Source of the DNA: Candidatus Uhrbacteria bacterium
Lineage (GTDB): Bacteria > Patescibacteriota > Patescibacteriia > JACPHY01
Direction: 5' to 3'
Assembly (NCBI GenBank): GCA_016188355.1
Contig: JACPHY010000001.1
Coordinates: 38,125-102,124, forward strand
Length of the DNA: 64,000 nucleotides
Made by a program: the position numbers and the translations under genes. The notes beneath the pieces are model-generated. The model worked only from the letters and a program-made list of their open reading frames with translations. It was not told the origin of the DNA and searched no databases. Shown in pieces: positions 12,677 to 59,531 of this stretch; the first letter of the stretch is position 1; every line of letters begins with the position of its first letter.

Positions 12677-12838
12677 GAGACCTCTGCAAACATCCCGATT
12701 CGCTCCAGGAACGCGCTGCTCGGCTGCGCTGCGTTCCTCGACCGTTCACGAGATCCGCTGGATATCGCTCGGGTCTGCGTCGCGCAGCTCGCTCGAGCAC
12801 CACGTCCCTGGCGCGAAAGCGATTATTGTGGAGGTCTC
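12677..12838 (+). mobile_element. Full-length 162-bp MITE-like repeat element with ~38-bp terminal inverted repeats (gagacctctgcaaa...tttgtggaggtctc). Fills the ftsW-murG intergenic space exactly: starts 2 nt after the ftsW stop and ends 6 nt before the murG ATG.
   Basis: ~93% identical to 59370-59531. Shorter or partial copies at 44884-44945 and 1030-1063. Arms are reverse-complementary. Confidence 0.75.
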
Positions 12839-15364: not shown

Positions 15365-15524
15365 ACCACGCAGGGAGCATCGATGGGACCATACACATCT
15401 CCGTCCCCACCCCACACCTGGAGCATATCGCGAAATCCACAGCGCGACAAGAACACATGGGGGCGGGTGTGTTCGTGATATACTGCAAGGGCATTGTACG
15501 GAGGTAGACTTTGTTGTTTGGCGT

Positions 15525-18500: not shown

Positions 18501-20186
18501 CTCATCACGGCGACTGCGGCATTGTCCTCGGGCATGGTATTGGAATCCTCCACATGGTTCCGGGTGGATCGAACGCCGCCTGCTCCGCCGGCTGTGGATG
18601 AGTTGCGATTGCTCCGTCGGACGCCGGCAGCCGCATCGGATGCTCCCACGGCATTTGCGGTGACTCTAGCGTTACGCGGAACTCTTACGGAGGGAGAATT
18701 CGCAACGCTGGACGCGCTCCTCGTGACCGTGGCATCGGATCCGGTGACCTTCACCTTCACCCCATCCACGCGCAACTGGTCTTACGAGACGACCGTTCCC
18801 CTGGAACCGGGATCGCACAGCGTGCGTGTTGCTGCACGGGATCGCGCGGGCAATGTATCGCCCTTACCGCAGGCGCTCACTTTTGATGTGGCTCCCGCAC
18901 AATGCGGGAATGGTATCGATGACGACGGCGATGGAACGATCGATGCGCCGAATGATCCAGACTGTCGCGATGTCCGAGATGATAAAGAAGCATCAGATGC
19001 GATGTTGGTTCGCGCGGCATCCGCAGTTCGCGATTCCGTGGTGACGACTGCAGTCGTGGTGCAACAGACGACCATCGCGGCCGCAAAATCCACCGCTGAT
19101 ACCGCAGCGGCAGTAGCGGTCCTCGTGCAGGAGCGGGTGCTCGATAACCCGGTCGTGGAGGTGGTTACGGAGCGCGCGGTTGCACCGGTGACCACGGTGG
19201 CGGTCGTGGCCAATGCGGCGACGGCGGTGGAGGGATTCCAGCTCGTGAGCTATCTCCAGTACCTCATCAGCCTCGTACTGCAGCCCGGACGGTTGCTCGC
19301 GCGTCGCAAGCGAAAGGCGTGGGGGACCGTGTACGCAAGTCTCACGAAGCGGCCGGTCGACCTTGCGACGGTGCGCCTCGTGGATACGGTCGCCGGTCGG
19401 GTGGTGCAGACCGCGGTCACCGATCATTTAGGTCGATTCACCTTCCTCGTGCAGCGGCCGGGTACCTATCGATTGGAGATCCAGCATCCAAAATTTGCGT
19501 ACCCTTCCGCGCTCCTTCGGGGACGTCCTACCGATGGCGTATTCGCCGATTGTTATTACGGTGCTCCGATTGTTGTGGATACGCAGGGAGCATTTCTCGC
19601 GATGAACGTGCCCGTGGATGCGTACGAAGAAGAGCAAACGACCAAACGGGTGCTGCGCCGGCACTATCGAGAACTGGCGGGTGCGCTCATCGCCCAGGTG
19701 AGCCTCGTGTCCTCGTTGTTCGTGCTCGCGGTGTCCCCCAGCGTACTAACCGTTGTGCTTGCGCTCGTGAATGGTGGACTCTATTTCCTCTTCCGTCGGC
19801 TTGCACGTCGCCCCCGCCTGCCGCATTCCTGGGGAGCAGTACGTGACGCGGCGAAACGTCACCCTATCGGACGGGCCATCGTGCGATTGTTTGATCAAGA
19901 ATTCAATAAACTACTGGAAACTGCAGTAACCGATCGATACGGGCGCTACCAATTCCTCGTCGGCAAGAACGCGTATTACGTGGCTGCCGAGAAGACAGGG
20001 TATGTCGCGGCGCGGTCGTCGGTGGTGGATCTCACGAAGCAAGAGAGTGTGCTCGGGGTGGATTTCCAGTTGCAGCCGAGCGTTTTGGGTGCTGATGTGT
20101 CATCTGCGGAATTGAATCGTCACGTGTCACCATCCGTGCAGATTGCGTCGACAGGGGATACGTCCCATGGTACGCTCGCTTCATAA
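15525..20186 (+). CDS. Giant (~1550 aa) cell-surface protein. N-terminal signal/TM; multiple BNR/Asp-box (S-x-D-x-G-x-T-W) repeats; Ig/FN3-like domains; two CarboxypepD_reg-like domains separated by TM helices near the C-terminus. ORF open from 15213; ATG 15525 precedes the hydrophobic leader.
   Basis: Repeated STDAGASW, SGDGGATWT, STDGGTSWS, SVDGGANWS, STDRGLVWT. C-terminal GTYRLEIQHPKFAYPS and RYGRYQFLVGKNAYYVAAEKTGY motifs. Hydrophobic segments LVSSLFVLAVSPSVLTVVLALV. Confidence 0.7.
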   Translation: MLRTSSRGVAASFVGASFVLSAILIMVRLDAASRSFVASFATTATRDAVTTAVWDTEAREIRLPASGAAWSPYAGLAEQRVRAIAFSPAFASDRTMLVGVADGIYRSTDAGASWVRSATTANEVVDIALSPAFTGDGAAFAITNGDGLWRSGDGGATWTKVDADASGLGVAFSPAFAADRTVFVAAFTSIRKSTDGGTSWSPANIGIDSTALENGDIRGIAVSGSYATDATVYVSALGIGVYRSVDGGANWSPSNPSGVSVSYAAAIATNGGGTVAAAFLDGVYVSTDRGLVWTKRVDGDIFDIAFATDGSMLVASATQPMRVLVGTESAAPLGTGWPGTGSFSIAVAPTYPAPGSVIAGHASGAAVIRGAYATTAVAVSSVVDDVPRNILRATVTPTADQPAGTSVSYELSVADGEPAWEGPVTPGEVWTFRGSGSSLRWRATLQTTSDVVTPVLRGLTIAYTSEDSVAPPTIASGTPTTTTIRWSWGDRPADATGFVVHAGTHGSADERVIGTVNTREADYLVEEGLTPNTAFCDRHVHTRRNDELSDPSAAFPCVTTLVSVPLLTAAERTSNSVALRFPPEDAPVTYAIHEQISNQFVGADGKLANGVVWQRGVGWGSGVVPVLGLSPDTSYAFCLRARNRAGAMSTCAAPVSVTTIAAAPLGEIAVGAGTRASGGRVRMEIEVHSVGAGSAEDVVVRIPVSEGLRVVPDALRLQGNVLTDTRDGDVGDVDGAGSGGITFRLGTLSSGATRVMELSLTSVSPGAVTATVYPIVSYRPESGADIRTASLPAPLTISIAPPSTDVPPVMTPPGEAPPVSNGGAPAVMNPPAVGGGWGSVDAAGTFTILAPRDGTAVPVGPLSVTGTATPGSVLVIDVDDRRMATVTTDSEGRFSGAVGDGLPLGDHRIAAQLGNARSELHIAVVPSDDAIRITAPVSGTYINVAAVVVAGTAPPGITLQLTQDAAPLGSLTVDESGAFTFPIPAAPSEGPHLITATAALSSGMVLESSTWFRVDRTPPAPPAVDELRLLRRTPAAASDAPTAFAVTLALRGTLTEGEFATLDALLVTVASDPVTFTFTPSTRNWSYETTVPLEPGSHSVRVAARDRAGNVSPLPQALTFDVAPAQCGNGIDDDGDGTIDAPNDPDCRDVRDDKEASDAMLVRAASAVRDSVVTTAVVVQQTTIAAAKSTADTAAAVAVLVQERVLDNPVVEVVTERAVAPVTTVAVVANAATAVEGFQLVSYLQYLISLVLQPGRLLARRKRKAWGTVYASLTKRPVDLATVRLVDTVAGRVVQTAVTDHLGRFTFLVQRPGTYRLEIQHPKFAYPSALLRGRPTDGVFADCYYGAPIVVDTQGAFLAMNVPVDAYEEEQTTKRVLRRHYRELAGALIAQVSLVSSLFVLAVSPSVLTVVLALVNGGLYFLFRRLARRPRLPHSWGAVRDAAKRHPIGRAIVRLFDQEFNKLLETAVTDRYGRYQFLVGKNAYYVAAEKTGYVAARSSVVDLTKQESVLGVDFQLQPSVLGADVSSAELNRHVSPSVQIASTGDTSHGTLAS

Positions 20187-31304: not shown

Positions 31305-32417
31305 ATGGCAAATGACTACTACGAGGTATTAGGGATTCCGAAGCATGCGTCTCCCGACGACATTAAACGCGCGTTTCGAAAACTCGCGCAGGAGCATCAT
31401 CCGGATAAGGGGGGGGATCCGGAAAAATTTAAAGAGGTAAATGAAGCGTATCAGGTGCTTTCCGACGCAGAGAAGCGGCAGCAGTACGATCAGTACGGCA
31501 GGACATTCGAGCAGGCGCGTGCGCAGGGCGGATTCCAGGGATTCGAGGGATTCCGGGATTTTTCCACATGGGCGGAAGCATCCGGCGTCAATTTTGAGGA
31601 TTTGTTTTCTGGGATGTTTGGGGGCGGTCTCGGGGATATGTTTGGGATGGGCGGCGGACGTCGGCGGCAGCGTCGCGGGCGAGATCTCGAAATTGCGATC
31701 GAGTTAGAATTTTCTGAAGCGGTGTTCGGTGTCACGAAGGCGGTTCCCCTCGAACGTCGCGTGCCATGCGATGTGTGCGGGGGAAGCGGTGCTGCGTCGG
31801 GTGCGAGCAAGAAGGCCTGTGCTACCTGCAAGGGGGCGGGTCGCGTGCGCACGGTGCAGCAGACGATTTTTGGTGCATTTCAGGTGGTCACGACCTGCTC
31901 GTCCTGTCAGGGCGAGGGTCAGGTGATCACGGAGCCGTGCGTTGCATGCCGCGGGCAGGGGACGCAGTTGCGTACGGATGAGGTGCAGATTGCGGTGCCT
32001 GCGGGTGTCGAAGCGGGGAACACGCTTGAGCTTACCGGCCAGGGAGAGGCGGGAGAGCGGGGTCTTCCCTCGGGGAATCTCTACGTGCACATTCGCGTGC
32101 GCCCGCACCAGTTGTTCACACGGGAAGGAACCACTATTTTCTCGCGGATCGTGATCACGCCAACACAGGCAGTGCTCGGTGATCGGGTTATTGCCGCAAC
32201 GGTTGATGGTGATGTGGAGGTGAAAATTCCTGCGGGCACACAGCCCGGCGACCAGTTGCGCTTGCGCGGGAAGGGTGTTCCTCGTTCCCACGGGTTTGGT
32301 CGAGGGGATCAGGTGGTGACTGTGATGGTCGATATTCCCCGTAAACTGAATCGCAAGCAGCGAGAACGTTGGGAAGAACTGCAGCGGGTGGAAAAAGAGG
32401 AACGAGAAAAGACGTAA
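31305..32417 (+). CDS. dnaJ: Molecular chaperone DnaJ (Hsp40, type I). ORF open from 31137; canonical J-domain start at 31305.
   Basis: [36 protein letters not shown] (J domain, HPD). G/F-rich region. Four CxxCxGxG zinc-finger repeats. C-terminal CTD. Confidence 0.92.
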
Positions 32418-32536
32418 GATGGTATACTGGTGTGGACAAGTGCACCTCCTTTTGGTTGCCGCATATATCGATGGCGGCGTTTGCGTGAGTATCCGCTCCC
32501 AACGCGTTTGGTGGGCGGGCGAGCACGTACGACGAG

Positions 32537-33562
32537 ATGAGGAGGTGCTTGCATGATCTGCATATGCCGGAGCAGCTCCCGCCATCGTCACCGACGCCCG
32601 TCGTCATTCGTACGGTGCTCGGTATTATTGCTTCGAGTGTGTTTGGCGCGTGGTTGGTGCAGGGAGCAGGGGCGGCGGTGTGGACGGAGCCGGGTGCGCA
32701 GCCGCCCACCGGAAATCCGCCGGGCTTCGTATGGACGCAGAGTCCATCTGCGTCACCGCAAGCAGGAGGTCAATTTAATATTGAAGGAGCAGGGAGGCTG
32801 GGCGGGGTATTAGAGGCGTTGGGCGGTGGTCTCTTTGGGAGTGCCACATTCGATCTCGGGAATGCCGCAGGTGGTCAGAGTGTCATTTCCGGAACGGCGC
32901 AATTCGACCGCATGCACGCGGCCGATGCGTTGTTGCTCCTGCAAACAGATGCAGGTGGAACGAGAACGGATCGTTTTCGCGTCGATCGTTCCGGTGCGGT
33001 CACCGCAAGTACGAGTGTCACGGCGCCGCAGATTTGCATTGGGAACGCATGTCGTACGGATTGGCCAACCGGTGCCATCACCGGGGTGACGGCCGGGACC
33101 AATCTCAGTGGTGGGGGCACTACAGGTTCGGTGACGCTCAACGTAGTCAATAATCCGACGTTTAGTGGGGATGTGAGTGTGGGGGGGCGGCTCAATGTGA
33201 CCGGCTGTTTTGGGCCCGTTCTGCGCGGCAAGACGAGCAGTACGGCAAATGGCAATCGTGGGGGGTATGCGCAGATCAACGTACTGTGCCCCGCCGGTCA
33301 GCACGTATGCACGACTGCGGAGGTGCTGAATTCGATCAACTGTGGAGCGATTGGGGTGGGGGGATTGGGTATCTCGAATGGAACGGATTTGTGGATCGCG
33401 AATCTTGCCCCCTCATTGCCGACGCCGACCAATGATTGCGTGGGATGGACGAAAGACACGGCGGCCTGGAAGGGCATTAAGTGGAGTTTTCATGCAACCA
33501 CCGGCGGTGCGGCATATGCGGAAGGTTGTAATGCCGCACTTTCCTTTGCTTGTTGCGGGTAA
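32537..33562 (+). CDS. Secreted or membrane-anchored repeat protein, paralogue of the downstream giant gene (tail-fibre-like repeats with Cys pairs, Cys-rich C-terminal module)
   Basis: N-terminal hydrophobic anchor. Shared motifs with the 33607-38776 gene: DALLLLQTDAGG, RFRVDRSGAV, QICIGNACRTDWP, ends ...FACCG. Confidence 0.55.
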   Translation: MRRCLHDLHMPEQLPPSSPTPVVIRTVLGIIASSVFGAWLVQGAGAAVWTEPGAQPPTGNPPGFVWTQSPSASPQAGGQFNIEGAGRLGGVLEALGGGLFGSATFDLGNAAGGQSVISGTAQFDRMHAADALLLLQTDAGGTRTDRFRVDRSGAVTASTSVTAPQICIGNACRTDWPTGAITGVTAGTNLSGGGTTGSVTLNVVNNPTFSGDVSVGGRLNVTGCFGPVLRGKTSSTANGNRGGYAQINVLCPAGQHVCTTAEVLNSINCGAIGVGGLGISNGTDLWIANLAPSLPTPTNDCVGWTKDTAAWKGIKWSFHATTGGAAYAEGCNAALSFACCG

Positions 33563-33606
33563 TAGTGCTTATGCTCCGCACGTCCGTTTCCTCCTCCCGT
33601 CGGCGA

Positions 33607-34458
33607 ATGGCGGTCACGCGCATCGGTAGTGTCGCATTGCTGGTGCTTGCCATGAGCGCGCCTTCGGTCGCATGGGGACAATCAACATGTTCAGCGGGTC
33701 AGCAATACTGTCCGTCCGGATCCTATGCGGGGACGTGTCAGGTGAATACGAGGTCATGTCCAACAGGATCGGTGAGTGCGACGGTGGATGGGTGTTCTGC
33801 GTGCGCGTGTCCTGGTGGGCAGGTGGTGTGCAGCAATGCGTGTGTTGCGACTCAGGCGGGAAACGCATGTACGACAGCAACCGGTGATTCTGGGACATAC
33901 AACGCCTGCGGTACGTCGTGCACGGCAACTCCTCCGGAATCGGTGATTATCACGCCATCTGCTGCACAGGCCACCATTCCGGCCCGGTCGTCACGTCCTG
34001 GGATTTTTCTCAATCAGACAGGAACCGGATCCATTGTGCAGCTGCAGCAATCCGGGGCGAATGTACTGACCGTGAATGGAACCGGTCTCCAGATCGGTTT
34101 GCAGGACGGAGGTCTGGGTATTGCGCTTGGGGCGGGTGATGCGGGACAAAATCTCTTGTATGGGGTCGTCGATTACGCGGCATCCAATGCGGGGGATGCG
34201 CTGCTACTGCTTCAAACTGCGGCGAATTCGGGAGGTTCGCAAGTACCCACTACGCGTTTTCGTGTGGATCGTGAAGGAAATGTGGCCGCGAGTGGTGGAG
34301 CAACGATCGCCGGCGGCATCACCGCAGGATCGGGAAGCGTCGGCATTATTGATAGCACCGGCAAAATTCCCGAACTCTCCTCGACCTACCTCGCCAATCT
34401 CTCTGGCGCGAATCTCACAAGCTTGAATGCAGCGAATCTCACGGGAGATAGCGGCTGA
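33607..34458 (+). CDS. 5' fragment of a giant secreted repeat protein (signal peptide, Cys-rich N-module), truncated by a 2-bp indel frameshift at ~34448. Likely continuous with 34427-38776.
   Basis: MAVTRIGSVALLVLAMSAPSVAWG signal peptide. The last ~150 nt are 100% identical to 35501-35650 except for the gc indel that creates TGA. Confidence 0.55.
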   Translation: MAVTRIGSVALLVLAMSAPSVAWGQSTCSAGQQYCPSGSYAGTCQVNTRSCPTGSVSATVDGCSACACPGGQVVCSNACVATQAGNACTTATGDSGTYNACGTSCTATPPESVIITPSAAQATIPARSSRPGIFLNQTGTGSIVQLQQSGANVLTVNGTGLQIGLQDGGLGIALGAGDAGQNLLYGVVDYAASNAGDALLLLQTAANSGGSQVPTTRFRVDREGNVAASGGATIAGGITAGSGSVGIIDSTGKIPELSSTYLANLSGANLTSLNAANLTGDSG

Positions 34459-36592
34459 CCAGGCGCTGTTTGGTGTATTGGTGGGATCCGCCGGAAAGTT
34501 CCTCATCGACAATGAGGGAGATGTGGTGGCGGTGGGTAGCGTGAAGGCACCATCGTTCTGTATTGGGGATGACTGCAAATCGTCGTGGGCAGCGGTGGCG
34601 ACTGGCAGTCCAGTGGTACAACTGCAATCGGCGACGCCGGGTACCGCGCAGGATGGCCATCTCAATATATCGGGAACGATTCGTGGAACGCAGCTTTGTC
34701 TCGGTGGAGAATGTAAAACGACGTGGTCGGAAATCGCGGGGACTTCGGTGTCGCTCCAAGGTTCATATCCTGGGACCGCAGATGCGGGCAATTTCCACGT
34801 GAGCGGGTCGGGTCGTGTGGGCACGGATCTCGCGGTGATCGGGACGACGACGCTAGGCGCCGCAGGGGGCAGTTCGACGGTTTTGAACGCGGTGGGATCA
34901 AATTTTTACCTGAACGGTGAAGGAAACATTCAGCTGCGGGTCGGAACTGCAGGAGCGGCTACGACGGAAAAATTTTCTCTCAATAATGGCGCGAATGCTG
35001 AAATTTTCTCCCTCGATGAGACGGGTGCCCTCGACGTTGCCGGCGGAATCGTCGCAGGAACCGGGAACGTTCAAATCGTGAATGCCACGGGAAAGATTAA
35101 CAATATTTCGTCTACGACGTTCGCTAACCTCTCCGGTTCCAACCTTACCACCTTGAACGCCACGCAATTGACCACGGGAACAGTTAATGCCGCGCGATTG
35201 CCGTCCACCATGACGCAGGCAACGACATTCACTGGAGTTCCCACAGGCACTGGGGTGCTGCAAGGATCGCTCATAGCGAATCCGGCATCTGCGACCGCGA
35301 ACTATGCATTACTTGGCGTGGCCGCCGCGGGTGATGTGGCCGCCGCCGGGCGATTGTGCATTGGATCAGACTGTCGCAGCGCATGGCCTGCCGGCATCCT
35401 GTTGCAGGATTCACTTCCGGGAACTGCACAGACAGGCAATTTCCATATTACCGGTGGGGCGGTGCTCGATGGTGCATTGAGCTCCGCAACGCTCAACGTG
35501 GCCGGCGGCATCACCGCAGGATCGGGAAGCGTCGGCATTATTGATAGCACCGGCAAAATTCCCGAACTCTCCTCGACCTACCTCGCCAATCTCTCTGGCG
35601 CGAATCTCACAAGCTTGAATGCAGCGAATCTCACGGGAGATGCAGCGGCTGACCAGGCGCTGTTTGGTGTATTGGTGGGATCCGCCGGAAAGTTCCTCAT
35701 CGACAATGAGGGAGATGTGGTGGCGGTGGGTAGCGTGAAGGCACCATCGTTGTGCATGGGGGATGATTGCAAGTCCCGTTGGTCGGACGTGACTGCGGGT
35801 ACGGTACTTCTGAGTAGTACTCGTCCTGGCTCGCAGCAGGATGGCCATATCAACATTACGGGTGATGTACGATCGGGAGCATTGATCACGACGGAGTACA
35901 TTGCATCGCTCGGTCCGATCGGATGGGGTCCGATCGGCGGACCCGCCGGATCGCTACAGTGGAATGAATCTACGGTGCAGATGGGTGCGTATTCCAACAA
36001 TGACGTACACATTATTACGGGAGGCGATCAGCCGCGCGTGCAGATTCAGCATGCGACGGGGAATGTGGGTATTGGTAGTGCCCCCAGCCCCGACTATCGA
36101 CTGAATGTGGGCGGTACTTTAAATGCGACGCGCATCTGTATTAATGGAGACTGTCAGACGGCATGGCCGGCGGGTGGTGCCGTCGGCAACTTTGTGCCGC
36201 TCCGTGCCAGCGCACCGACCACCGCCGACGCCGGCCATTTTTACATATCAGGATCTGGCCGTATTGGGGACGCGCTCCAGGTGGACAGCACCGGCGCAAC
36301 CGCCCTCGACGTTGCCGGAGGTATCGTTGCAGGAACCGGGAACATTCAGATCGTGAATGCCGCGGGAAAGATTCCTGTGTTGAGTGCCACCACTCTCGCC
36401 AATCTCACTGGCTCGAACCTCACCAACTTGAACGCTTCGCAATTGGCTGCTGGAACAGTTAATGCCGCGCGATTGCCGTCCACCATGACGCAGGCAACGA
36501 CATTCACTGGAGTTCCCACAGGCACTGGGGTGCTGCAAGGATCGCTCATAGCGAATCCGGCATCTGCGACCGCGAACTATGCATTACTTGGC
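34309..36592 (+). repeat. Intragenic long direct repeats: ~250 bp 100% identical pair (34309-34560 and 35501-35754, only difference the 2-bp frameshifting indel) and ~136 bp pair (35178-35313 and 36453-36592)
   Basis: Direct sequence comparison. The six-frame track shows duplicated antisense ORFs (34204-34824 vs 35411-35848) as a by-product. Confidence 0.8.
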
Positions 36593-38776
36593 TGTCGCAG
36601 CGCATGGCCTGCCGCAGGTGTCCCGAGCGTGGCATTGTTGGATGCACTACCGGGAACTGCACAAACAGGACATTTTAATATCTCGGGAAGTGGTGTATTC
36701 GGCAATGCGGCGAGCGCGCGCCAGATTATCGCATCGGGAACGGCAGGATTTGGTCGCTTGACCTACAACGAAACCACTGGGAAGGTCCAGCTACAGGATT
36801 CATCGTATGCAAATGATGGCAGCGACGGGCTGACACTCGATGGGAGCAATTTGCATGTGGTGGGCGCGTTGAGTGCTACCAGTCTCGACATCGCCGGCGG
36901 CATCCAGGCAGGATCTGGGAACGTCGCGATTATTGATGGCTCCGGAAAAATTCCTGGAATCTCCTCGACGTATTTTACGAGCCTCTCTGGAGCAAACCTG
37001 ACGGAGCTGAATGCGAGCAACATCTCGACGGGCGCCATTAATATTGCACGTATTCCGAACACGGTGGCTAAGCTAGCATTTCCGGCAAAGTTCACGGGAA
37101 GCGCCAGCGCGGCGTGGGATTACGCCACGCTCGTGGCAAACCCAGCATACGCGGACGAAGATGATGCGCTTATTGCTGCGGGAATGGGTACGAGTGCAAG
37201 CAGTAATGCGGTGTTCCGGGTCGACAAGGAGGGCGACGTGACTGCGGCGAGTAGTCTCTCTGCTCCGATGGTGCAGGGCACGAGGCTCTGTATTAGTGAC
37301 TCCTGTATAGATGGATGGAGTGAAATTCCTGGTGGAGGGGGAGGTGGCGGCGGCAGCTTTGTGCCGCTGCGCGCCAGCGCACCGTCCACCGCCGATACCG
37401 GTCATTTCTACATATCAGGATCTGGCAGAATCGGGAGCACGTTGCAGGTGAACAGCACCGCCGCATCCGCGCTTGACGTTGGTGGCGGCATCAATGCAGG
37501 GACCGGGAACGTCGGAATTATCGACGCATCGGGAAAGATACCCGCCATTTCTTCGACGTATTTCGCGAGCACTGCATTAAATGCGAGCGATCTCTCGAGT
37601 GGTACGGTTGCCGCTGCACGGTTGCCTTCCACGGTGATTCTGGAGGGTGAATCCGGATCCACGCTCACGAATTTGAACGCGAGCAATTTGGCGAGCGGAA
37701 CCGTTTCCGCGGCGCGACTACCCACCTCGATTACGCAGGCTACGACGTTCACTGCGTTGCCGGGTGGAGATACGTGGTCAGGATTTACACCCAGCGTCGC
37801 CATTAATCCAAGATCGGATATTACGAACTCAGGATGGCCGCTCCTTCGCGTGGGGATGAATGATGCGGCCATTTTCACGGTACTTGGATCAGGATCGGTA
37901 TCCGTTTCCGGAGGAATTTTTGCGGGTACGTCATCGGGAACGGGAGTGCAAATCGTCAATGGTTCGGGAAAAATACCCGAAATTTCCTCCACGTATTTCA
38001 GTAGTGTATCTGGAGCCAACCTCACCAACTTGAACGCGGCGAACCTCACCGGCACCATTGATGCGGCTCGATTGCCGACGCTCACGAACTTGAACGCGAG
38101 CAATTTGGCGAGCGGAACCGTTTCCGCGGCGCGACTACCCACCTCGATCACGCAGGCGACAACTTTTGCGGCGACACCGAGCGGTGCCGGTGTGTTGCAG
38201 GGTGCGTTAGCAGTGAATCCGGCGAGCGCAGGGTCGGATCGCATCCTGTTTGGTGTGGCGGTGAATGGTGTATCGAAGCTGAAAGTGGATGCAGAGGGCG
38301 ATGTGGAGGCCGCGAGTAGCCTGAAGGCACCGTCGCTATGTTTGGGGAGCGATTGTCGGACCTCCTGGCCGTCCGGTGGTTCGAGCAATGCGGTGAGTTT
38401 GCAGTCTGGCGGATTGACTGCGCAGACTGGTGGTTTATCGGTAACGGGAGAGGGACGGTTTGGGTCGATATCGGTGGACGATCTTGTGGTGTCAAATTCC
38501 TTCTCCGCGCCGACGATCGAGACTGATGGAGAATTTTTTTGGAAGGGCGGTCCATTGATTTCGGGGACGCGCGAGGTGGTGAATAGCGAACCTAGTACTA
38601 CGGGTTCTGCGATGGCTAGGTGTCAGTCGGGATACCTTTTGACGGGCGGTGGGTGTATGTGTAATGGCCCATTGAAGGCCACATGGCCATCGTCTGATGT
38701 TGCGGAGGCATGGCAATGCGTCGGGACGTGCTCTCGGATCACGGCGTATGCAATTTGCTTGAAGAAGACCCAATAA
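34427..38776 (+). CDS. 3' part (~1440 aa) of the giant secreted repeat protein. Many ~40-aa repeats of G(S/T)GNVxIVNAxGKIPxISSTxFANLSGSNLTxLNAxxLxxGTVNAARLP and recurring xLCIGxDCRxxWP Cys pairs. Real reading frame begins ~34452 after the frameshift.
   Basis: Open frame to 38776. Internal near-identical DNA repeats (34309-34560 = 35501-35754; 35178-35313 = 36453-36592). C-terminal Cys-rich module resembling that of 32537-33562. Confidence 0.6.
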   Translation: MQRISREIAADQALFGVLVGSAGKFLIDNEGDVVAVGSVKAPSFCIGDDCKSSWAAVATGSPVVQLQSATPGTAQDGHLNISGTIRGTQLCLGGECKTTWSEIAGTSVSLQGSYPGTADAGNFHVSGSGRVGTDLAVIGTTTLGAAGGSSTVLNAVGSNFYLNGEGNIQLRVGTAGAATTEKFSLNNGANAEIFSLDETGALDVAGGIVAGTGNVQIVNATGKINNISSTTFANLSGSNLTTLNATQLTTGTVNAARLPSTMTQATTFTGVPTGTGVLQGSLIANPASATANYALLGVAAAGDVAAAGRLCIGSDCRSAWPAGILLQDSLPGTAQTGNFHITGGAVLDGALSSATLNVAGGITAGSGSVGIIDSTGKIPELSSTYLANLSGANLTSLNAANLTGDAAADQALFGVLVGSAGKFLIDNEGDVVAVGSVKAPSLCMGDDCKSRWSDVTAGTVLLSSTRPGSQQDGHINITGDVRSGALITTEYIASLGPIGWGPIGGPAGSLQWNESTVQMGAYSNNDVHIITGGDQPRVQIQHATGNVGIGSAPSPDYRLNVGGTLNATRICINGDCQTAWPAGGAVGNFVPLRASAPTTADAGHFYISGSGRIGDALQVDSTGATALDVAGGIVAGTGNIQIVNAAGKIPVLSATTLANLTGSNLTNLNASQLAAGTVNAARLPSTMTQATTFTGVPTGTGVLQGSLIANPASATANYALLGCRSAWPAAGVPSVALLDALPGTAQTGHFNISGSGVFGNAASARQIIASGTAGFGRLTYNETTGKVQLQDSSYANDGSDGLTLDGSNLHVVGALSATSLDIAGGIQAGSGNVAIIDGSGKIPGISSTYFTSLSGANLTELNASNISTGAINIARIPNTVAKLAFPAKFTGSASAAWDYATLVANPAYADEDDALIAAGMGTSASSNAVFRVDKEGDVTAASSLSAPMVQGTRLCISDSCIDGWSEIPGGGGGGGGSFVPLRASAPSTADTGHFYISGSGRIGSTLQVNSTAASALDVGGGINAGTGNVGIIDASGKIPAISSTYFASTALNASDLSSGTVAAARLPSTVILEGESGSTLTNLNASNLASGTVSAARLPTSITQATTFTALPGGDTWSGFTPSVAINPRSDITNSGWPLLRVGMNDAAIFTVLGSGSVSVSGGIFAGTSSGTGVQIVNGSGKIPEISSTYFSSVSGANLTNLNAANLTGTIDAARLPTLTNLNASNLASGTVSAARLPTSITQATTFAATPSGAGVLQGALAVNPASAGSDRILFGVAVNGVSKLKVDAEGDVEAASSLKAPSLCLGSDCRTSWPSGGSSNAVSLQSGGLTAQTGGLSVTGEGRFGSISVDDLVVSNSFSAPTIETDGEFFWKGGPLISGTREVVNSEPSTTGSAMARCQSGYLLTGGGCMCNGPLKATWPSSDVAEAWQCVGTCSRITAYAICLKKTQ

Positions 38777-38815
38777 GGTGCTCCAATGAGCATTGCCCTC
38801 CATACAGCAGCACGC

Positions 38816-40261
38816 ATGCAGTTGCGCTTCCATAACAGTCTTCATCGCCGCACCGAATCATTCCGGCCCCACAAGGGCCGGACGGTGCGCATGTATACGT
38901 GTGGGCCCACGGTGTATGACTTTGCGCATGTGGGCAATCTTCGGACGTACCTGTTCGAGGATGTGTTGAAACGCGTACTCCTGCGGCAGGGATACCGCGT
39001 TCGGCACGTCATGAATATTACGGACGTTGGTCACCTGACCGACGATGCGGATCAGGGCGAGGATAAGCTCGAGCGTGCTGCGGCGCGGCAGCAAAAATCC
39101 GCAGCGCAGCTGGCGGCATTCTATACGCGAGCATTTCTCAAGGACCTGCATCGCCTCCACGTGTTGCCTGCGGACGATCTCCCGCGTGCGACTGCGTACA
39201 TTCCGCAGCAGATCGCGTTGGTGCGGCGTCTCGAGCGCCTCGGTTACACGTACGTGACGAGCGATGGGGTGTACTTCGATACCACGAAGTTTGCTCCATA
39301 CGGGACCGCGTTCGGCGGGCAGGCGCTCACGGAAAAGGAGGCGGGGGCGCGTGTGGAGGTGCGGGGCGAGAAGCGCTCTCCCCATGACTTCGCGCTCTGG
39401 AAATTGACGCCGCCGGGTGTTCGTCGGCAACAGGAGTGGGATTCCCCGTGGGGACGCGGATTCCCGGGCTGGCATCTCGAGTGTTCTGCGATGGGCCGCG
39501 CGCTCCTCGGGCAGCCGTTCGATATCCACTGCGGCGGCATTGATCATATTCCCGTCCATCACACGAATGAAATTGCCCAATCGGAGGCGGCGTATGGAAA
39601 GCCGCTCGCTCTGTGGTGGTTACATGGCGCATTCCTGACCGTGGAGGGGAAGCGCATGGGAAAATCCGAAGGCAATCTCATCACGATTGATCAGTTGGAG
39701 TCGCGTGGAGTGGATCCACTTGCGTATCGCTATTTGGTTCTGGGTGCGCATTATCGCTCCGCGCTCAACTTCACGCAGGAGGCGGTGACGGGTGCGCAAT
39801 CTGCATTGGATCGGCTGCGGGATATCGCACGGGCACTCCCGCGTATTCCGTATGCAGGGAGCGACGCGAACGGGATTGTCCGATTGCAGCGCATGATGCA
39901 ATCGGTCGACGGCCGGAAAGCGCAAGAGCATCTGGATGCGGCATTTGCGGATGATTTGGATACGCCGCAGGCACTCGCGGTGCTGTGGGACGCGGTGCAA
40001 AATGATCAGATTGCGCCATTGGAGCGTGCGGCGTTGGTTGCATCCGCGGATCAGGTGTTTGGTCTGGGGTTGGCGGAGCTCCTCGGAAAGCCGGTGCGTA
40101 TTCCGCGCGCCGTCCGGGCGCTGGCCGATGCACGGGAGGCTGCTCGTATCGCAAAGGACTGGGCACGCGCAGACGTGCTCCGTGCGCAAATTGATGCACT
40201 CGGATTTCGGGTCGAAGATACGAAACGAGGACCAGTGATCAAGAAGCAGACGAACAGTTGA
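38816..40261 (+). CDS. cysS: Cysteine--tRNA ligase (ORF open from 38786; start MQLRFHNSL at 38816)
   Basis: MYTCGPTVYDFAHVGNLRTY (HIGH region HVGN). KMSKS (KMGKSEGN). C-terminal DALRAQ domain. Confidence 0.9.
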   Translation: MQLRFHNSLHRRTESFRPHKGRTVRMYTCGPTVYDFAHVGNLRTYLFEDVLKRVLLRQGYRVRHVMNITDVGHLTDDADQGEDKLERAAARQQKSAAQLAAFYTRAFLKDLHRLHVLPADDLPRATAYIPQQIALVRRLERLGYTYVTSDGVYFDTTKFAPYGTAFGGQALTEKEAGARVEVRGEKRSPHDFALWKLTPPGVRRQQEWDSPWGRGFPGWHLECSAMGRALLGQPFDIHCGGIDHIPVHHTNEIAQSEAAYGKPLALWWLHGAFLTVEGKRMGKSEGNLITIDQLESRGVDPLAYRYLVLGAHYRSALNFTQEAVTGAQSALDRLRDIARALPRIPYAGSDANGIVRLQRMMQSVDGRKAQEHLDAAFADDLDTPQALAVLWDAVQNDQIAPLERAALVASADQVFGLGLAELLGKPVRIPRAVRALADAREAARIAKDWARADVLRAQIDALGFRVEDTKRGPVIKKQTNS

Positions 40262-41325: not shown

Positions 41326-41805
41326 GTGCGTATGGAAGGCCCTCTGCCGGAGCATGCCCGTGGACTCGAACGAGTGGATCATGCGCTCGATCGGCGTGAA
41401 AATCAGGCGGGACCGGTAGCGGTGGAGCGCATGGCGGACCGCGCAGCAAGTGCTGCCCCGGTTGCGCCGCCGGCCGCCCCGGTTGCGCAGGCGGCTGCTC
41501 CGCAAAAATCGCCGCTGCGTGAGGAGATTGAGCAGGCGCTCGCAGATGATCGACTCCGAAAATTGTATCTCCACCTCGCACCGGCGGTGCAGGCGAGTTT
41601 TCGTGAAGCGGCGCTGCGGCTTGCGGAGCGCATCGAGCGTATGCTCGCGAGCGGAAAACTGGATATTCATGATCTCCATGAGGGGATTACGAATTGGCTT
41701 CGCGTCATTCCGAATGTAAATCGGTGGTTTCTGCTGCAGGAAGCCAAAGTGAAGACCGACGCTATCCTCGTACTTCAAGCGAAACGCACCGCTGCTCGTG
41801 GGTGA
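41326..41805 (+). CDS. Hypothetical protein (Ala/Pro-rich N-terminus, helical C-terminus). Alternative start ATG 41431 with SD ggtggag.
   Basis: ORF immediately upstream of and co-oriented with the VirD4-like ATPase (stop 41805, next start 41814). Confidence 0.35.
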   Translation: MRMEGPLPEHARGLERVDHALDRRENQAGPVAVERMADRAASAAPVAPPAAPVAQAAAPQKSPLREEIEQALADDRLRKLYLHLAPAVQASFREAALRLAERIERMLASGKLDIHDLHEGITNWLRVIPNVNRWFLLQEAKVKTDAILVLQAKRTAARG

Positions 41806-41813
41806 GCTGTCCT

Positions 41814-44249
41814 GTGCCCATTGATTTCCTCATCGCCGCCATCGTGCTCCTCCTCGCGATCGTGTGTATCGTTGTGGTGCTGTTTATTGTTCGTGCGATT
41901 GCGCGTCGCTCCGCCATGCTGCGCGCCGCCTTCGATCTCGTGGTGCTCCAGGTGTTGGTGCCAAAGGATGCGCAGGGTGGCGACAAAGGAGATCAAAGCA
42001 TTCAAAAAATTCAAGAGGCGATCGCGAAAACGGAAGTATTTTTTACGTCGATCGGCGGGCTTCGTGCGCAGCGGGGCATGGGTTCTTGGTTTCGCGGTCG
42101 TACGGATCACATCGCATTTGAAATCGTGGCCCATGACGGCCAGGTGAAGTTTTTTGTTGCCGTCCCGAACGCCTTGCGCTCCTTTTTGGAGGAGCAATTG
42201 CATGCGCAACGATCAGACGCGTACATTGATGTCGCCAGGGATTACAACATCTTTCAACCGACCGGCGTGGTGCTGGGTACGACGCTCACCCTGAAACGGT
42301 CGGGGTATTTTCCAGTGAAATCATATAAGAAGTTGGACGCGGATCCGCTGGATGGACTCACGAATGCAATGAGCAAGGTCACGGAACTCGAGGGAGCAGC
42401 GATCCAGCTGGTGGTGCGCTCTGCGCGGAAGGAGTGGCGATCGGGAGGGGTGAGCATTGCGTCGAAGATGCAGCAGGGAAAGACGCTCGACGAGGCGATG
42501 GGCGGTGGATGGATGTCCGGACTCTGGAAGAGTGTGGGGGCGGCATCGGGAACGGCATCCAAACAACCGGAAAAAATACACCAGCTGTCGCCGATGGAGC
42601 AGGAGATCGTGAAAGGGCTCGAAGAGAAGGCGGCGAAGTTTGGGGTGGACGTGAATGTACGGGTGCTCGTGTCCGCAGAAACGAACGACCGAGCCAAAAC
42701 GCTGCTGGCCTCCATCACGCAGGCATTCGCGCAGTACAACATTCCGCAGTACGGCAACATGTTTGTGACCGGCGGCACATCCTCTGCGCCGAAACTCATC
42801 GAGCAGTTCATCTACCGGAAATTTGATGAGAAGAAGCGGTTGGTGCTCAACGTGGAGGAGATGGCGAGTGTGTGGCACTTGCCGCTGCCGACAACGGAAA
42901 CTCCGACGGTGCAATGGCTGTCCTCCCGTCGGTTGCCGCCGCCCGTGAACATGCCGCAGGAGGGTGTGATCCTTGGAGAGTCCAACTACCGAGGGAAACG
43001 GGTGCTCGTGCGTTTGAAGCGCGCGGATCGGCGTCGGCACGTGTACGCCATTGGAGGTACGGGGACAGGAAAAACGACGGTCATGGAGAACATGTGTGTG
43101 CAAGATATCCGGGCGGGGGAGGGGGTGTGCGTCATTGACCCGCACGGCGAATTTGCGGAGCACATGCTGGCGAACGTCCCGAAAGAGCGCGCGGATGACG
43201 TGATCTATTTCGATCCGTCGGATGTGGAGCGCCCTCTGGGACTCAACATGCTTGAGGCGGATACGCCAGAGGCGCAGGATTTTGCCACGCAGGAAATGGT
43301 GGCCATTTTCTATAAGCTCGTCACGGATCCCTCCATGATTGGTCCGATGTTTGAGCATTACATGCGGAATGCGATGCTCACGCTCATGTCCGATCCGAAA
43401 AATCCGAGCACCATCGTGGAGATCCCGCGCATTCTCACCGATCCAGAGTTCCAGAAGCTCAAATTAAAGAACGTTACCGACCCGATTATTCGGGCGTTCT
43501 GGGAAAAGGAATTGCCGCAGACTTCCGGTCAGACCAAGGGAGAGATGCTGCCATATTTGGTTTCGAAGATTGGGCGATTCCTCGAAAATACGATGATGCG
43601 GAATATTATCGGGCAGCAGCGCTCCGCGTTCGATTTTCGGCAGATCATGGATCAAAAGAAAATCCTGCTCTGCAACTTGAGTAAGGGAAAGATCGGTGCC
43701 ATGAACTCAGATCTCCTAGGACTCATCATCATCACGAAGCTCCAAATGGCTGCATTGGCGCGTGCGAATGTGCCGGAGGATCAGCGACCGGATTTTTTCT
43801 GCTACATGGATGAGTTCCAGAATTTTATTACGGATTCCATCGCGATCATTCTTTCCGAGGCACGGAAATACCGTCTGGACCTCATCATGGCACACCAGTA
43901 CATCGCACAGCTGGTCAAAAGCAATGATACGCGCGTGCGTGATGCGGTGTTTGGCAACGTCGGGACCATTATCTCCTATCGTATCGGTGTAGATGATTCT
44001 GAATTGATCGCGAAGCAACTGGCGCCAGTAGTGTCGGAATTCGATGTACTGAATATCGAGAAGTTCAATGCGTATGCACGCATCATGATCGACAACACTG
44101 CACAGAAAGCATTCAACATGCGGGTGTTCGCCCCTTCATTTGGCGATCAGCGGATGTTCGATGCGCTACGTCAGCTGTCTCGACTGAAGTACGGTCGCGA
44201 TCGCGCTATTGTCGAGACGGAAATTTTGGAACGATCGCAGCTCGGGTGA
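41814..44249 (+). CDS. Membrane-anchored VirD4/TraG/TraD-like (type IV coupling protein / FtsK-HerA superfamily) ATPase with a ~350-aa N-terminal extracytoplasmic/unknown domain. GTG start; ORF open from 41694.
   Basis: N-terminal TM IDFLIAAIVLLLAIVCIVVVLFIV. Walker A HVYAIGGTGTGKTT. DPHGEF (T4CP DPxGE). Walker B FFCYMDEFQNF. C-terminal helical lid. Confidence 0.6.
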   Translation: MPIDFLIAAIVLLLAIVCIVVVLFIVRAIARRSAMLRAAFDLVVLQVLVPKDAQGGDKGDQSIQKIQEAIAKTEVFFTSIGGLRAQRGMGSWFRGRTDHIAFEIVAHDGQVKFFVAVPNALRSFLEEQLHAQRSDAYIDVARDYNIFQPTGVVLGTTLTLKRSGYFPVKSYKKLDADPLDGLTNAMSKVTELEGAAIQLVVRSARKEWRSGGVSIASKMQQGKTLDEAMGGGWMSGLWKSVGAASGTASKQPEKIHQLSPMEQEIVKGLEEKAAKFGVDVNVRVLVSAETNDRAKTLLASITQAFAQYNIPQYGNMFVTGGTSSAPKLIEQFIYRKFDEKKRLVLNVEEMASVWHLPLPTTETPTVQWLSSRRLPPPVNMPQEGVILGESNYRGKRVLVRLKRADRRRHVYAIGGTGTGKTTVMENMCVQDIRAGEGVCVIDPHGEFAEHMLANVPKERADDVIYFDPSDVERPLGLNMLEADTPEAQDFATQEMVAIFYKLVTDPSMIGPMFEHYMRNAMLTLMSDPKNPSTIVEIPRILTDPEFQKLKLKNVTDPIIRAFWEKELPQTSGQTKGEMLPYLVSKIGRFLENTMMRNIIGQQRSAFDFRQIMDQKKILLCNLSKGKIGAMNSDLLGLIIITKLQMAALARANVPEDQRPDFFCYMDEFQNFITDSIAIILSEARKYRLDLIMAHQYIAQLVKSNDTRVRDAVFGNVGTIISYRIGVDDSELIAKQLAPVVSEFDVLNIEKFNAYARIMIDNTAQKAFNMRVFAPSFGDQRMFDALRQLSRLKYGRDRAIVETEILERSQLG

Positions 44250-44971: not shown

Positions 44972-47470
44972 TTGGTTTTGCAAACGTTTTTGTATATGGG
45001 TACGCCTGAATTAGTTTCCTCTGCGCGTGTCGCAGTTCCTCAGGAGCGCGTCCCGGAGACGAAGATCCGGCCGGAATTGCGCGAGGAGCCTACGCGGACT
45101 GACCGTGAACGTCTCCAGCGTGCGCAGGAAGAGTTGGAAATGCTCCAGCGGGATGCAGGTCTGCCGGGTGCTGGTCCTCGGCGCCGCATGGCGGCGCTCA
45201 AGCGATTAACGGGGCGCGTGGTCGAGGATGCGGCGGAGTTGGATCGCGCATACGCGGAGGAGATTGTTCGCATGACCGCGCGTGTCCGTGCGTTGGAACG
45301 ATCACCGCTCCCGGCAATTCGTGAGGAATTGCTGCTGGAGTATCTGTCCGCTGCAGATCAGGAGGCGTTCCGGGAAGGTCGATTGCAGTCATGCGTGGAT
45401 ATCGTGGAACGGGACGCGGCATGGCTGCGGGAAGTAGATGTGGAGCGGACGTATCACGATGATGCGTACTATCGTGCAATGTTCGGTACGGAATCAGGAT
45501 TCACGTACCGTGCACATACCCAAGAGCGGCACAATCGAAAAGAACCCATTGCGGAGACGAAGCATGAGTTTATTGATCGCGTGGTTCGTGAGCGAGAGGA
45601 TCGGTTGCGCGAGACACAAGAAGCGATGCATGTGCTCGGCATGGTTCGTGGACGGGACGGTCTCATTCGTCTCCATACGTTTGATCGACCGCACGATCCC
45701 GGCGTGTTGATCGATGCGGCACTTGCGCATGCGTTCGTGCAAGAGCATCGGCGCATTGAGGAGGCTGCGCGCATGGAAGGGGCGCAGGATACATCGGAGC
45801 GTATCCATGCGGATCGTGCTCGTCTACGGGACAATGTGCAGCGGCTCTTGGGTCGTGCCCCAGAACTCACGGTCACGCCGGAGGTTCTGTTCGAGCCGGA
45901 GGTGTGGCAGGATACGGTTGCGTTGGCGCTTGTGCCGACGGAACGCGATGCAGTGCCAGCCAACGCGGATGCGCCACCGGAACGGCGGCGAGATTTGCTC
46001 CGTGTTGTTCCTGGGGGAAGCGTCGAAGAGTCGGACGATTTTGAGATTACCGAGGATACGGAGCATGGATTGCCGGAAGCACAGAAGGAGGAGCATGTTG
46101 CGCCTGTTGCGTCCCCTGCGGTAGCGGAGCGTCGCGCGACTCCTCCGGATGTGGAGCTGGGACTTCGGGTGTTTGGTGTTCTCGACCGCGCGAAGGCGGA
46201 GGGCTGGAGCGCGAATCGTGCGGAATATGCGGTGCGGGTGACGCTGCAGACCGGCACGGAGCACGTATCCGCCGCCCGATTACAGGAATTGCAGGATATC
46301 GTCGCGGAAGATCTCGCGCAAATGCGGCGCACGGAGACGGAGGGAGGGCGGGGCACTGATACTACGGAGCAGCTTCCAGAGACCGCGCTGAGCGAAAAGC
46401 AGGCTCGTGCGCTGCGACGCTCCACCCGGTTGCAGGAAGCGCGGGATGCCTTGCGGCGTATGAAGACCGAGCTGGATGCGCACCAGGCTCGTGCGCTGCA
46501 AGATTCCGCACATGAGGATGGGCGAGAACGTCCGTCACTTGCGGGGGGAGAGGGAGCTGAGGTCGATCGGGCGCCCATTGGACCGGAGGCGGTTCGGGAG
46601 GCGCGCATCGCATATGCCACCGAGCGGCAGCGGCCATCAAAGTGGGGATGGATCGCGGAGCGGGCGAAGGGCGTTCTCACGGCAGGTTTTTCGGAATTTC
46701 GTCATTTTGTGGGATACGGGCGAGCGGCGTGGCGAGGCGAGCGAGAAATCGACACCTCGTTCCGTGCGCTGCGTGCTGAGGCGGGCGCAACTCCGGAGGC
46801 ACAATCTGCCCGTATTGGACGTCTGGTGGATGAGGCGGAGTTCCATGTGATGCAGCGTCTCACCCATTACCGGGATGAGTTCGGTGACGGCGTGCTCACG
46901 GAGGATCGCATGCAGAAGTTCCGTGAACGGCTGCATCGAAAACTCCATGCGCTCCATGACCAACAGGAGCAGGCGGATCGTGGAGAATTTCGGAATCTCA
47001 TTTTACAGTCATTCGATCCATCCTGGTGGCGTCGTGGGGTGTATGGGGTGGTAGAGTTCGCGCTTGCCGCATCCGGTATCCGCCTGCTCATTGATCATGC
47101 ATTTACGGCGACGCCGATATTGGAGCAGGTGACGCAATCGCCGCTGCCAAAATTACCAGATACTCCACCCGATCTCGTGCGTACCATGCAGGGGACCGTA
47201 TGGGACACGATGCGTCAGATGTTCCCGGGTGCGAATCATACGCAGCTCACCGATGTGGTACGGAAGGTGATGGAACATAATGGCATCGTCGATCCGACGC
47301 CCGGCTCGACCGGATTTACGCATGCGAATGGCACGCCCAATCAGTGGGCAGGGGAGCACGTGCGCCATTTGGTGGAAAGTGGGCGCAATTGGGTGGATGC
47401 GACCAAAATGCCAGAAGGATTTCCGCTTCGTATGCCGAAGGAGGTGCTGCAGTTGGTGGGTTCGCTCTAG
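44972..47470 (+). CDS. Large (~830 aa) highly charged (Glu/Arg/Ala-rich) hypothetical protein. No TM, no recognised catalytic motif; start uncertain (TTG 44972 or ATG 44996).
   Basis: Single uninterrupted ORF of 2.5 kb. Compositional bias and predicted long helices. Confidence 0.45.
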   Translation: MVLQTFLYMGTPELVSSARVAVPQERVPETKIRPELREEPTRTDRERLQRAQEELEMLQRDAGLPGAGPRRRMAALKRLTGRVVEDAAELDRAYAEEIVRMTARVRALERSPLPAIREELLLEYLSAADQEAFREGRLQSCVDIVERDAAWLREVDVERTYHDDAYYRAMFGTESGFTYRAHTQERHNRKEPIAETKHEFIDRVVREREDRLRETQEAMHVLGMVRGRDGLIRLHTFDRPHDPGVLIDAALAHAFVQEHRRIEEAARMEGAQDTSERIHADRARLRDNVQRLLGRAPELTVTPEVLFEPEVWQDTVALALVPTERDAVPANADAPPERRRDLLRVVPGGSVEESDDFEITEDTEHGLPEAQKEEHVAPVASPAVAERRATPPDVELGLRVFGVLDRAKAEGWSANRAEYAVRVTLQTGTEHVSAARLQELQDIVAEDLAQMRRTETEGGRGTDTTEQLPETALSEKQARALRRSTRLQEARDALRRMKTELDAHQARALQDSAHEDGRERPSLAGGEGAEVDRAPIGPEAVREARIAYATERQRPSKWGWIAERAKGVLTAGFSEFRHFVGYGRAAWRGEREIDTSFRALRAEAGATPEAQSARIGRLVDEAEFHVMQRLTHYRDEFGDGVLTEDRMQKFRERLHRKLHALHDQQEQADRGEFRNLILQSFDPSWWRRGVYGVVEFALAASGIRLLIDHAFTATPILEQVTQSPLPKLPDTPPDLVRTMQGTVWDTMRQMFPGANHTQLTDVVRKVMEHNGIVDPTPGSTGFTHANGTPNQWAGEHVRHLVESGRNWVDATKMPEGFPLRMPKEVLQLVGSL

Positions 47471-59371: not shown

Positions 59372-59531
59372 GACCTCTGCAAAAATCCAGATTCGCGCCA
59401 GGAACGCGCTGTTCGGCTGCGCTGCGTTCCTCGACCGCTCACGAGATCCGCTGGATATCGCTCGGGTCTGCGTCGCGCAGCTCGCTCGCACATCACGTCC
59501 CTGGCGCGAAAGCGATTTTTGTAGAGGTCTC
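59370..59531 (+). mobile_element. Second full-length 162-bp MITE-like element. Left end overlaps the recJ stop codon (TGA); right end stops 2 nt before the rnhA ATG and provides its SD.
   Basis: ~93% identity to 12677-12838, with the same terminal inverted repeats. Confidence 0.75.

Follow-up and report, generated by a model that had tools for sequence, protein, structure and literature searches.

The stretch of DNA analysed here (the window) is 64 kb from the metagenome-assembled genome (MAG) of Candidatus Uhrbacteria, an uncultured groundwater bacterium of the candidate phyla radiation (CPR, or Patescibacteria), and our subject within it is a locus just downstream of dnaJ that appears to encode secreted, fibre-like surface proteins. 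Three open reading frames (ORFs) lie on the plus strand at 32537-33562, 33607-34458 and 34427-38776, and they are annotated at NCBI as the hypothetical proteins HYV74_00310, HYV74_00315 and HYV74_00320. A first-pass annotation made from the sequence alone had described them as a paralogous family of three with common signature segments. The coordinates and the segments are as it gave them, and BLASTP links the first ORF to both of the others through a DALLLLQT / RFRVD..G.V / C-x4-C-x3-W module at E values of 4e-8 to 4e-7, but this kinship is limited to one module type, and the locus holds two genes, not three paralogues: a small gene that we call P1 and a giant gene split across the second and third ORFs. 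That these two ORFs form one interrupted gene, as had also been proposed, is supported by comparison with related sequences, because their orthologues at four other loci (L005, L006, L007 and L012) are single ORFs; insertion of GC at 34449/34450 likewise restores one 1723-aa ORF with a signal-peptide-like N-terminus.

The P1 gene (32537-33562; NCBI annotated start 32564, giving 332 aa) encodes an N-terminal hydrophobic helix that could be a signal or an anchor, a short stalk of low complexity with a single DALLLLQT-RFRVD-CxxxxC module, and a C-terminal domain that is conserved. An AlphaFold2 (AF2) model places the helix at residues 12-34 and predicts the stalk poorly, and the C-terminal tip (33161-33559) is modelled with a predicted local distance difference test score (pLDDT) of 70-89. 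About 25 orthologues occur in Uhrbacteria and other CPR bacteria at 41-77% identity, and their alignment shows that the tip is highly conserved rather than hypervariable, with eight invariant cysteines and the invariant motifs HVCTT.E, WI.NLAPSLPTPTNDC.GW and FACC. Nearly all of the top 30 Foldseek matches of the tip in PDB are C-type lectin-like domains or endostatin, at weak scores (E 0.05-3, TM ~0.4), and no match to Pfam Lectin_C was found. These models suggest, at weak scores, that the P1 tip is C-type-lectin-like at the level of fold.

The giant gene begins with the 283-aa ORF at 33607-34458 (HYV74_00315), which closes at a premature TGA caused by a 2-nt gap and encodes the signal peptide, a Cys-rich N-terminal domain and the first stalk modules; the 1449-aa ORF at 34427-38776 (HYV74_00320) continues it in frame from 34450. 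Read by eye from the sequence, the N-terminus MAVTRIGSVALLVLAMSAPSVAWGQ is signal-peptide-like, and the N-terminal domain that follows (nt 33682-33936) contains 12 cysteines. The degenerate, fibre-like repeats previously noticed in the long ORF resolve into modules of which, in the deposited sequence, seven are of type A (~55 aa, GG.xAGSGxVxIxDxxGKIPxxSSTYxAxLSGxNLTxLNAxxLxxGTxxxARLP) and eight of type B (NPASA..LFGV..KFxVDxEGDV...C-x4-C-x3-W), with one orphan Cys besides; a further C module reads LQ..PGTAQTGxFxISG. The stalk regions, modelled as a monomer, have AF2 pLDDT below 50. The Cys-rich C-terminal module recognised in the first reading is a head of ~72 aa with six cysteines (38558-38773), whose AF2 model is an all-beta, six-stranded beta-sandwich with pLDDT 84-91 over the last ~72 residues, and its motif C..G....GGGC...W.C....AYAIC is conserved in family members. 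Foldseek ranks the PCSK9 C-terminal domain and resistin highest in PDB, with a probability of 0.85-1.0 and an rmsd of 2.1-2.4 A across ~70 columns, at weak E values of 0.13-1, so that the predicted fold may be described as resembling resistin and the PCSK9 C-terminal module. In the window head, the first two cysteines of other family heads are absent and two extra ones stand at 'GGGCMC' and 'GTC'; in this lineage, then, the head seems to have acquired a different disulfide pattern.

Searches against known families returned little. Pfam and NCBIfam gave no match for any of the three ORFs, and their sole match in the libraries is a weak one to PHROG 1330 'tail protein' (6.6e-5) over a short stretch. 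PDB sequence searches with the giant, with P1 and with a 29-sequence A-module profile gave nothing but noise, and a search with the C-terminal 287 aa of the giant gave only partial repeat matches and missed the query protein itself, its candidates being dominated by low-complexity words. A pentapeptide-repeat protein was considered and rejected: Pfam gave no match, and the alignment of 'ANLSGANLT.LNA' with designed pentapeptide-repeat proteins was noise (E >3). The tail-fibre-like or adhesin-like architecture proposed at the outset is nevertheless apparent in a secreted, repetitive product whose A module occurs elsewhere in proteins that sometimes end in Peptidase_S74, C1q, Phage_depo_C or collar-like domains. 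Because the A-module relatives carry these ends, 'tail-fibre-like' is a fitting description of the architecture and not of family membership.

The locus has a consistent place in related genomes. In the closest relative, L005 (GCA_016206015.1), where the housekeeping proteins nearby share 74-90% identity with their window counterparts, the gene order hrcA-grpE-dnaK-x-dnaJ-P1-giant-cysS-corA-x-VirD4-like is the same, and the giant is a single intact ORF of 1691 aa, uninterrupted at the point equivalent to the window indel. The giants of L006, L007 and L012 are also intact (1079, 852 and 1032 aa), each lying directly downstream of dnaJ; L006 and L007 have a P1-like gene before the giant and cysS after it, and in L012 the giant follows dnaJ immediately and no cysS was identified. 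All four have the N-terminal domain in common, and the family members read have the C-terminal head in common as well. Between these conserved ends the protein changes quickly: the window and L005 giants are ~53% identical at aligned positions, with many insertions and deletions of whole modules, and total length ranges from 852 to 1741 aa across relatives (1741 being the restored window gene). Three relatives (P0032, P0233 and P0197) join a giant-type Cys-rich N-terminal domain directly to a P1-type lectin-like tip, which shows domain shuffling between the two gene families, with the tips as interchangeable cassettes on a common chassis. A HMMER search of 1.84 billion representative proteins with the second ORF gave 195 matches in all, of which ~13, nearly all longer than 283 aa, contain the giant N-terminal domain while the remainder match module A only, and profile scans for related loci found two in genome contigs (tighter alignment) and four in metagenome contigs. 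Judged from these sequence searches, the fibre family seems to be rare and restricted to a clade of Uhrbacteria-like CPR bacteria; it has no profile in Pfam or NCBIfam and is in that sense undescribed. Two of the related contigs carry unexpected labels. L007 (CAZPCZ010000010.1) was deposited as a 'Gammaproteobacteria' MAG and carries the CPR-type synteny dnaK-dnaJ-P1-giant-cysS-VirD4-like, probably as CPR DNA that was mis-binned or mislabelled; L008 (DATJFD010000082.1), deposited as a 'Binatia' MAG, matched part of the N-terminal region only.

Within the stalk of the window giant lie two pairs of identical repeats, all on the plus strand. The first, repeat R, is the ~250-bp pair 1.19 kb apart that had been noted together with the 2-bp indel: the upstream copy (34309-34557) consists of 141 nt and 108 nt and lacks GC, and the downstream copy (35501-35751) is 251 nt long and has it, with 34309-34449 identical to 35501-35641 and 34450-34557 identical to 35644-35751 (100% in both parts). 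The second, repeat S, had been placed at 35178/36453 and proves to be an exact 141-nt match beginning at 35177/36452. Its upstream copy (35177-35393) is complete at 217 nt and encodes ...GTVNAARLPSTMTQATTFTGVPTGTGVLQGSLIANPASATANYALLGVAAAGDVAAAGRLCIGSDCRSAWP; in its downstream copy (36452-36614), 36452-36592 is identical to 35177-35317, after which 54 nt are missing and 22 identical bases follow. The in-frame 18-codon deletion reported earlier is this 54-nt gap, and the report understated it: the deletion sits at the end of the downstream copy of the second pair and removes the first Cys of an otherwise invariant C-x4-C pair. A third, older pair (37661-37767 / 38078-38184) is 88% identical, with a longest exact run of 59 nt.

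The identity of R and S is far beyond chance, because other copies of the repeat modules are only 44-75% identical at the DNA level; at 80% identity, the probability of 163 or 249 consecutive matches is at most 1e-16. The tracts are embedded in homologous flanks of ~45-80% identity, a classic signature of conversion, and the mosaic is best read, on this sequence evidence, as intragenic gene conversion among diverged repeats, in agreement with the recombination first suggested. The downstream R copy lies in a segment inserted relative to the L005 orthologue. The two repeats are interleaved (R..S..R..S) across 34309-36614, and the segments 34558-35176 and 35752-36451 could be exchanged with the same short-read junctions, so the deposited order is not uniquely determined, and comparison with L005 does not discriminate the two arrangements. 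The edges of the tracts are found in raw data too: independent Logan assemblies (k=31) of three sequencing runs match the window at 100% identity, and their contigs break precisely at repeat edges. Contigs L003 and L004 stop 30 nt inside repeat R, at 34338; L001 begins at 38119 and L002 at 38090, both at 30-mers present twice in the window. The 59-nt exact run (38090-38148 / 37673-37731) is one that MEGAHIT could pass and that breaks the k=31 contigs.

The position of the two gaps within these repeats suggests where they came from. The longest exact repeats in the window measure 141, 141, 108, 59 and 50 nt, and a deletion stands at the end of each of the two 141-nt runs: the 2-nt GC gap at 34449..34450, which splits the giant gene, lies exactly 141 nt past the left edge of repeat R, in a context, GAT[GC]AGCGGC, that contains no homopolymer or simple repeat, and the 54-nt gap follows 36592. 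Restoring both gives a single ORF of 1741 aa in which the orphan Cys is paired again and all Cys pairs are complete, and it extends the exact tracts to 251 nt and 217 nt. L005 belongs to BioProject PRJNA640378, the project of He et al. 2021, in which 150-bp reads were assembled with MEGAHIT v1.2.9 at defaults and then scaffolded with IDBA-UD (PMC7906910). The protein accessions of the window fall in the same block as those of L005 at a plausible offset, and the runs that contain identical sequence bear accession numbers close to one another; the window MAG thus very probably belongs to this project, and hence to its pipeline. The default final k of MEGAHIT is 141, so that a contig that runs into an exact repeat of more than k nt, and stops at the 141-mer of a branching node, would end 141 nt in. 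Under the mechanism we propose, MEGAHIT contigs would have terminated at 34449 and 36592, each 141 nt into an exact repeat, and the IDBA-UD scaffolder would have joined them while over-trimming true overlaps of ~31 nt and ~65 nt by 2 and 54 nt, which would reproduce both gaps exactly; the real giant gene would then be a single ORF of ~1741 codons.

We hold with considerable confidence that the frameshift and the 18-codon deletion are artefacts of contig joining. An assembly error had been offered initially as the alternative to a biological switch, with collapsed repeats as its cause; the 141-nt geometry makes the error the likelier of the two, given that each of the two deletions begins exactly at the 141-nt mark of an exact repeat, but the cause is more likely a contig join than a collapsed repeat. 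Local assembly errors are, as reported by the same research group, a prominent feature of IDBA-UD output, with one example in a repeat-containing protein gene of a CPR bacterium (PMC7111523). The errors described there by Chen et al. 2020 resemble what we propose for the window gaps in that repeat-protein genes of CPR MAGs are broken at contig joins; they differ in being detectable by a lack of junction reads, whereas the error in the window is deduced from geometry and pipeline. The 49-aa ORF tail that only the frameshift creates was looked up in Logan assemblies and was not found, which is weak evidence in the same direction. Programmed +1 frameshifting was also considered and rejected, the overlap AAT GCA GCG AAT CTC ACG GGA GAT AGC GGC TGA containing no slippery or RF2-like site.

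The alternative that survives best is that the 2-bp deletion is real, a very recent inactivating mutation or a sub-population allele that entered the consensus, and that it leaves a young pseudogene or a truncated 283-aa fragment, with the 54-bp deletion real as well. Such loss or variation is common in surface-fibre genes, the length of the giant differs greatly among relatives, the NCBI annotation has two separate proteins, the downstream frame of 1449 codons is still fully open as a very young lesion would leave it, and de Bruijn graphs do not normally create a 2-nt deletion. Against these points, two independent mutations would have to begin 141 nt into an exact repeat, at a chance of ~1/100 or less, and each affects only one copy of its pair while looking deleterious (a frameshift in one case, an orphan Cys in the other); the four orthologous loci are intact, and a look-up in the Logan assemblies did not return the frameshift-specific tail. 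We consider a real lesion unlikely.

The on/off or length switch that was first proposed, in which conversion or unequal crossing-over between the identical repeats toggles the adhesin or alters its length, fares less well. The exact direct repeats, 1.19 kb (1194) and 1.28 kb (1275) apart, are good substrates for recombination, and both spacings are multiples of 3 and keep the frame; crossing-over in the 141-nt part of R, for example, would delete 1194 nt and leave an in-frame product ~398 aa shorter than 1723. Stalk length and module content vary strongly among relatives, and CPR bacteria need surface structures for host contact (PMC11665869; PMC7906910). The disruption itself is nonetheless accounted for by the 141-nt coincidence without recourse to biology: it affects one of five loci, the indel lies outside any simple-sequence tract, there is no evidence of heterogeneity, and no invertase, reverse transcriptase or inverted repeat was found (for inverted repeats, at least 30 nt within 32000-39500). 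A switch is on these grounds quite improbable. Were the gaps real and the repeats kept identical by frequent conversion, an episymbiotic CPR bacterium would be switching its main attachment fibre through RecA-type recombination; we give this version equally little credence, but if true it would be a contingency mechanism that works without simple-sequence repeats or invertases and turns a host-attachment fibre off or on or changes its length.

We propose that both proteins are surface attachment fibres, because they combine Sec-type N-termini, modular stalks, interchangeable tips, rapid change of the stalk and a fixed position in the core genome. The C-terminal tips would bind a host-cell or substrate ligand, and the stalk evolves fast through gain and loss of modules and through intragenic gene conversion, the last of which accounts for the two exact tracts, probably 251 and 217 nt long. 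A trimeric fibre is plausible by analogy, because resistin and C1q heads are trimeric. Patescibacteria rely on surface appendages and predicted adhesins for epibiotic life (PMC11665869), and cells from the groundwater of this lineage bear fibre-like or pilus-like appendages that reach into hosts (PMC7906910); we draw no link between those appendages and the window genes.

Comparison with known systems places the giant between two kinds of fibre. Like the fibrillar adhesins described by Monzon et al. (PMC8286594; PMC9210967), it combines a signal peptide with a very long stalk of repeats and a small globular domain at its distal end, and it resembles them further in its quick change of length and modules between close relatives and in intragenic recombination among its repeats; we find in it a secretion signal and a long stalk of seven A and eight to nine B modules with internal DNA repeats. 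It differs from them in that its stalk modules lack a Pfam stalk domain (Ig-like, Big) and resemble instead the modules of tail-fibre-like proteins, in having a 12-Cys N-terminal domain and no LPXTG, S-layer-homology or other recognisable anchor, and, for the locus as a whole, in heads that appear resistin-like and C-type-lectin-like and are not known adhesive domains. With phage tail fibres and receptor-binding proteins, which have Peptidase_S74, collar or C1q-like ends, it shares the A module and a plan of N-terminal attachment part, stalk and C-terminal tip, and it may likewise be trimeric; the window fibres depart from them in their housekeeping context, their Sec signal peptides, the lack of an S74 chaperone or collar domain and the lack of any tblastn match of a stalk segment to deposited phage genomes. 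The predicted head resembles the C-terminal Cys-rich modules of vertebrate resistin and PCSK9 as a six-stranded, disulfide-rich beta-sandwich of ~70 aa, and resistin heads stand at the end of a trimeric stalk, which offers a further comparison; it is unlike them in being bacterial, in having no detectable sequence similarity and in a Cys pattern that varies even within its own family.

These likenesses raise the possibility that the ORFs are phage tail-fibre genes, left by a prophage or belonging to a tailocin. The weak PHROG 1330 match points that way, as do the co-occurrence of the A module with Peptidase_S74, Phage_depo_C, C1q and collar-like domains in other proteins and the many tail fibres and receptor-binding proteins that Foldseek lists among viral models, at weak and non-specific scores. 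The chromosomal setting speaks firmly against it. The locus lies directly downstream of dnaJ in five contigs and is followed directly by cysS in four; in the window it is flanked by hrcA-grpE-dnaK-dnaJ and then by cysS, corA, a VirD4-like gene and mur/fts genes, with full-length Pfam matches, and the remainder of the window is housekeeping (rhamnose synthesis, murA, pyrG, mraY, ftsW, murG, a penicillin-binding protein gene, dnaX, murJ, lepA, recJ and pilM). No phage structural, lysis or integration genes were found among the window ORFs scanned or beside the related loci, a stalk segment had no tblastn match in 50,697 phage genomes, and both proteins have Sec-type N-termini, unlike virion fibres. 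The locus is chromosomal and not a prophage, and a phage origin for the two genes is very improbable. The same scans of window ORFs found no recombinase or invertase and no reverse transcriptase; BLASTP found no further paralogues of the fibre family in the window, and none of its ~29 other ORFs, most of which have Pfam matches, contains a frameshift. A diversity-generating retroelement that targets the lectin-like tip or the repeats, with the repeat pairs as template and variable regions, is barely credible and was rejected: CPR genomes are rich in such elements, usually with C-type-lectin folds as targets (PMC8144416, PMC11661182), and the P1 tip is lectin-like, but the scan of ORFs along the window found no reverse transcriptase, the repeat pairs show zero substitutions and hence no adenine-specific mismatches, and the tip is conserved among orthologues.

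Together, these results support with moderate confidence an explanation in which a conserved two-gene locus encodes secreted fibre-like surface proteins of an uncharacterised family, and in which the apparent lesions of the giant are joining artefacts. Several points weigh against it. The function in cell-surface attachment is one that we infer from sequence and models, and no LPXTG motif, S-layer-homology domain or other anchor was recognised in the giant sequence. The fold assignments carry Foldseek E values of at least 0.05 and derive from shallow alignments of 6 and 20 sequences, and the low confidence of the stalk prediction bears on any fibre or trimer structure. The artefact is deduced from where the gaps fall, at 141 nt, and from the published pipeline, and membership of PRJNA640378 is deduced from L005 as nearest relative, from the block of protein accessions and from the numbers of the SRA runs. 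The mechanism presumes, moreover, two behaviours of the assemblers: that a MEGAHIT contig includes the whole 141-mer of the branching node at which it stops, and that IDBA-UD scaffolding shortens overlaps according to an estimated distance.

If this explanation is right, the databases hold three 'hypothetical proteins' where two genes most likely exist. A lesion exactly k nt into an exact repeat would then be a cheap, read-free flag for scaffolding errors in assemblies made with MEGAHIT and IDBA-UD scaffolding, and the 141-nt form of this flag could be used to screen the ~2,000 MAGs of this project as well as others built likewise. The locus defines a small fibre family whose genes keep a fixed chromosomal position and carry interchangeable tips, lectin-like or resistin-like. 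CPR bacteria live attached to host cells, and the determinants of their attachment and host range are largely uncharacterised; fast-evolving fibres of this kind are reasonable candidates, and only candidates, for that role.

Other features of the window were recorded alongside the fibre locus. A near-identical element of ~75 nt occurs twice on the same strand, at 12730-12805 and 59423-59498, with a 50-nt exact core (12746-12795 / 59439-59488), where the chance expectation is 0; an Rfam search of the element gave no match. The first copy lies just after ftsW, upstream of or inside the 5' end of the murG ORF, and the second lies between recJ and the next gene. Downstream of the fibre genes, a VirD4/TraG-like coupling ATPase (41694-44249; DUF8128 in precomputed matches) is followed by a ~740-830-aa protein without a Pfam match (44972-47470), and this pair is kept downstream of cysS-corA in all related contigs (L001, L005, L006 and L007); it is possibly a component of a CPR type-IV-secretion-like or competence apparatus. 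A second very large protein, of 1657 aa and unrelated to the fibre family, is encoded at 15213-20186 on the plus strand, and its BNR/Sortilin-Vps10, fn3, Big_6/Big_13, CarboxypepD_reg and MG3-like domains accompany its classification as a probable surface protein.

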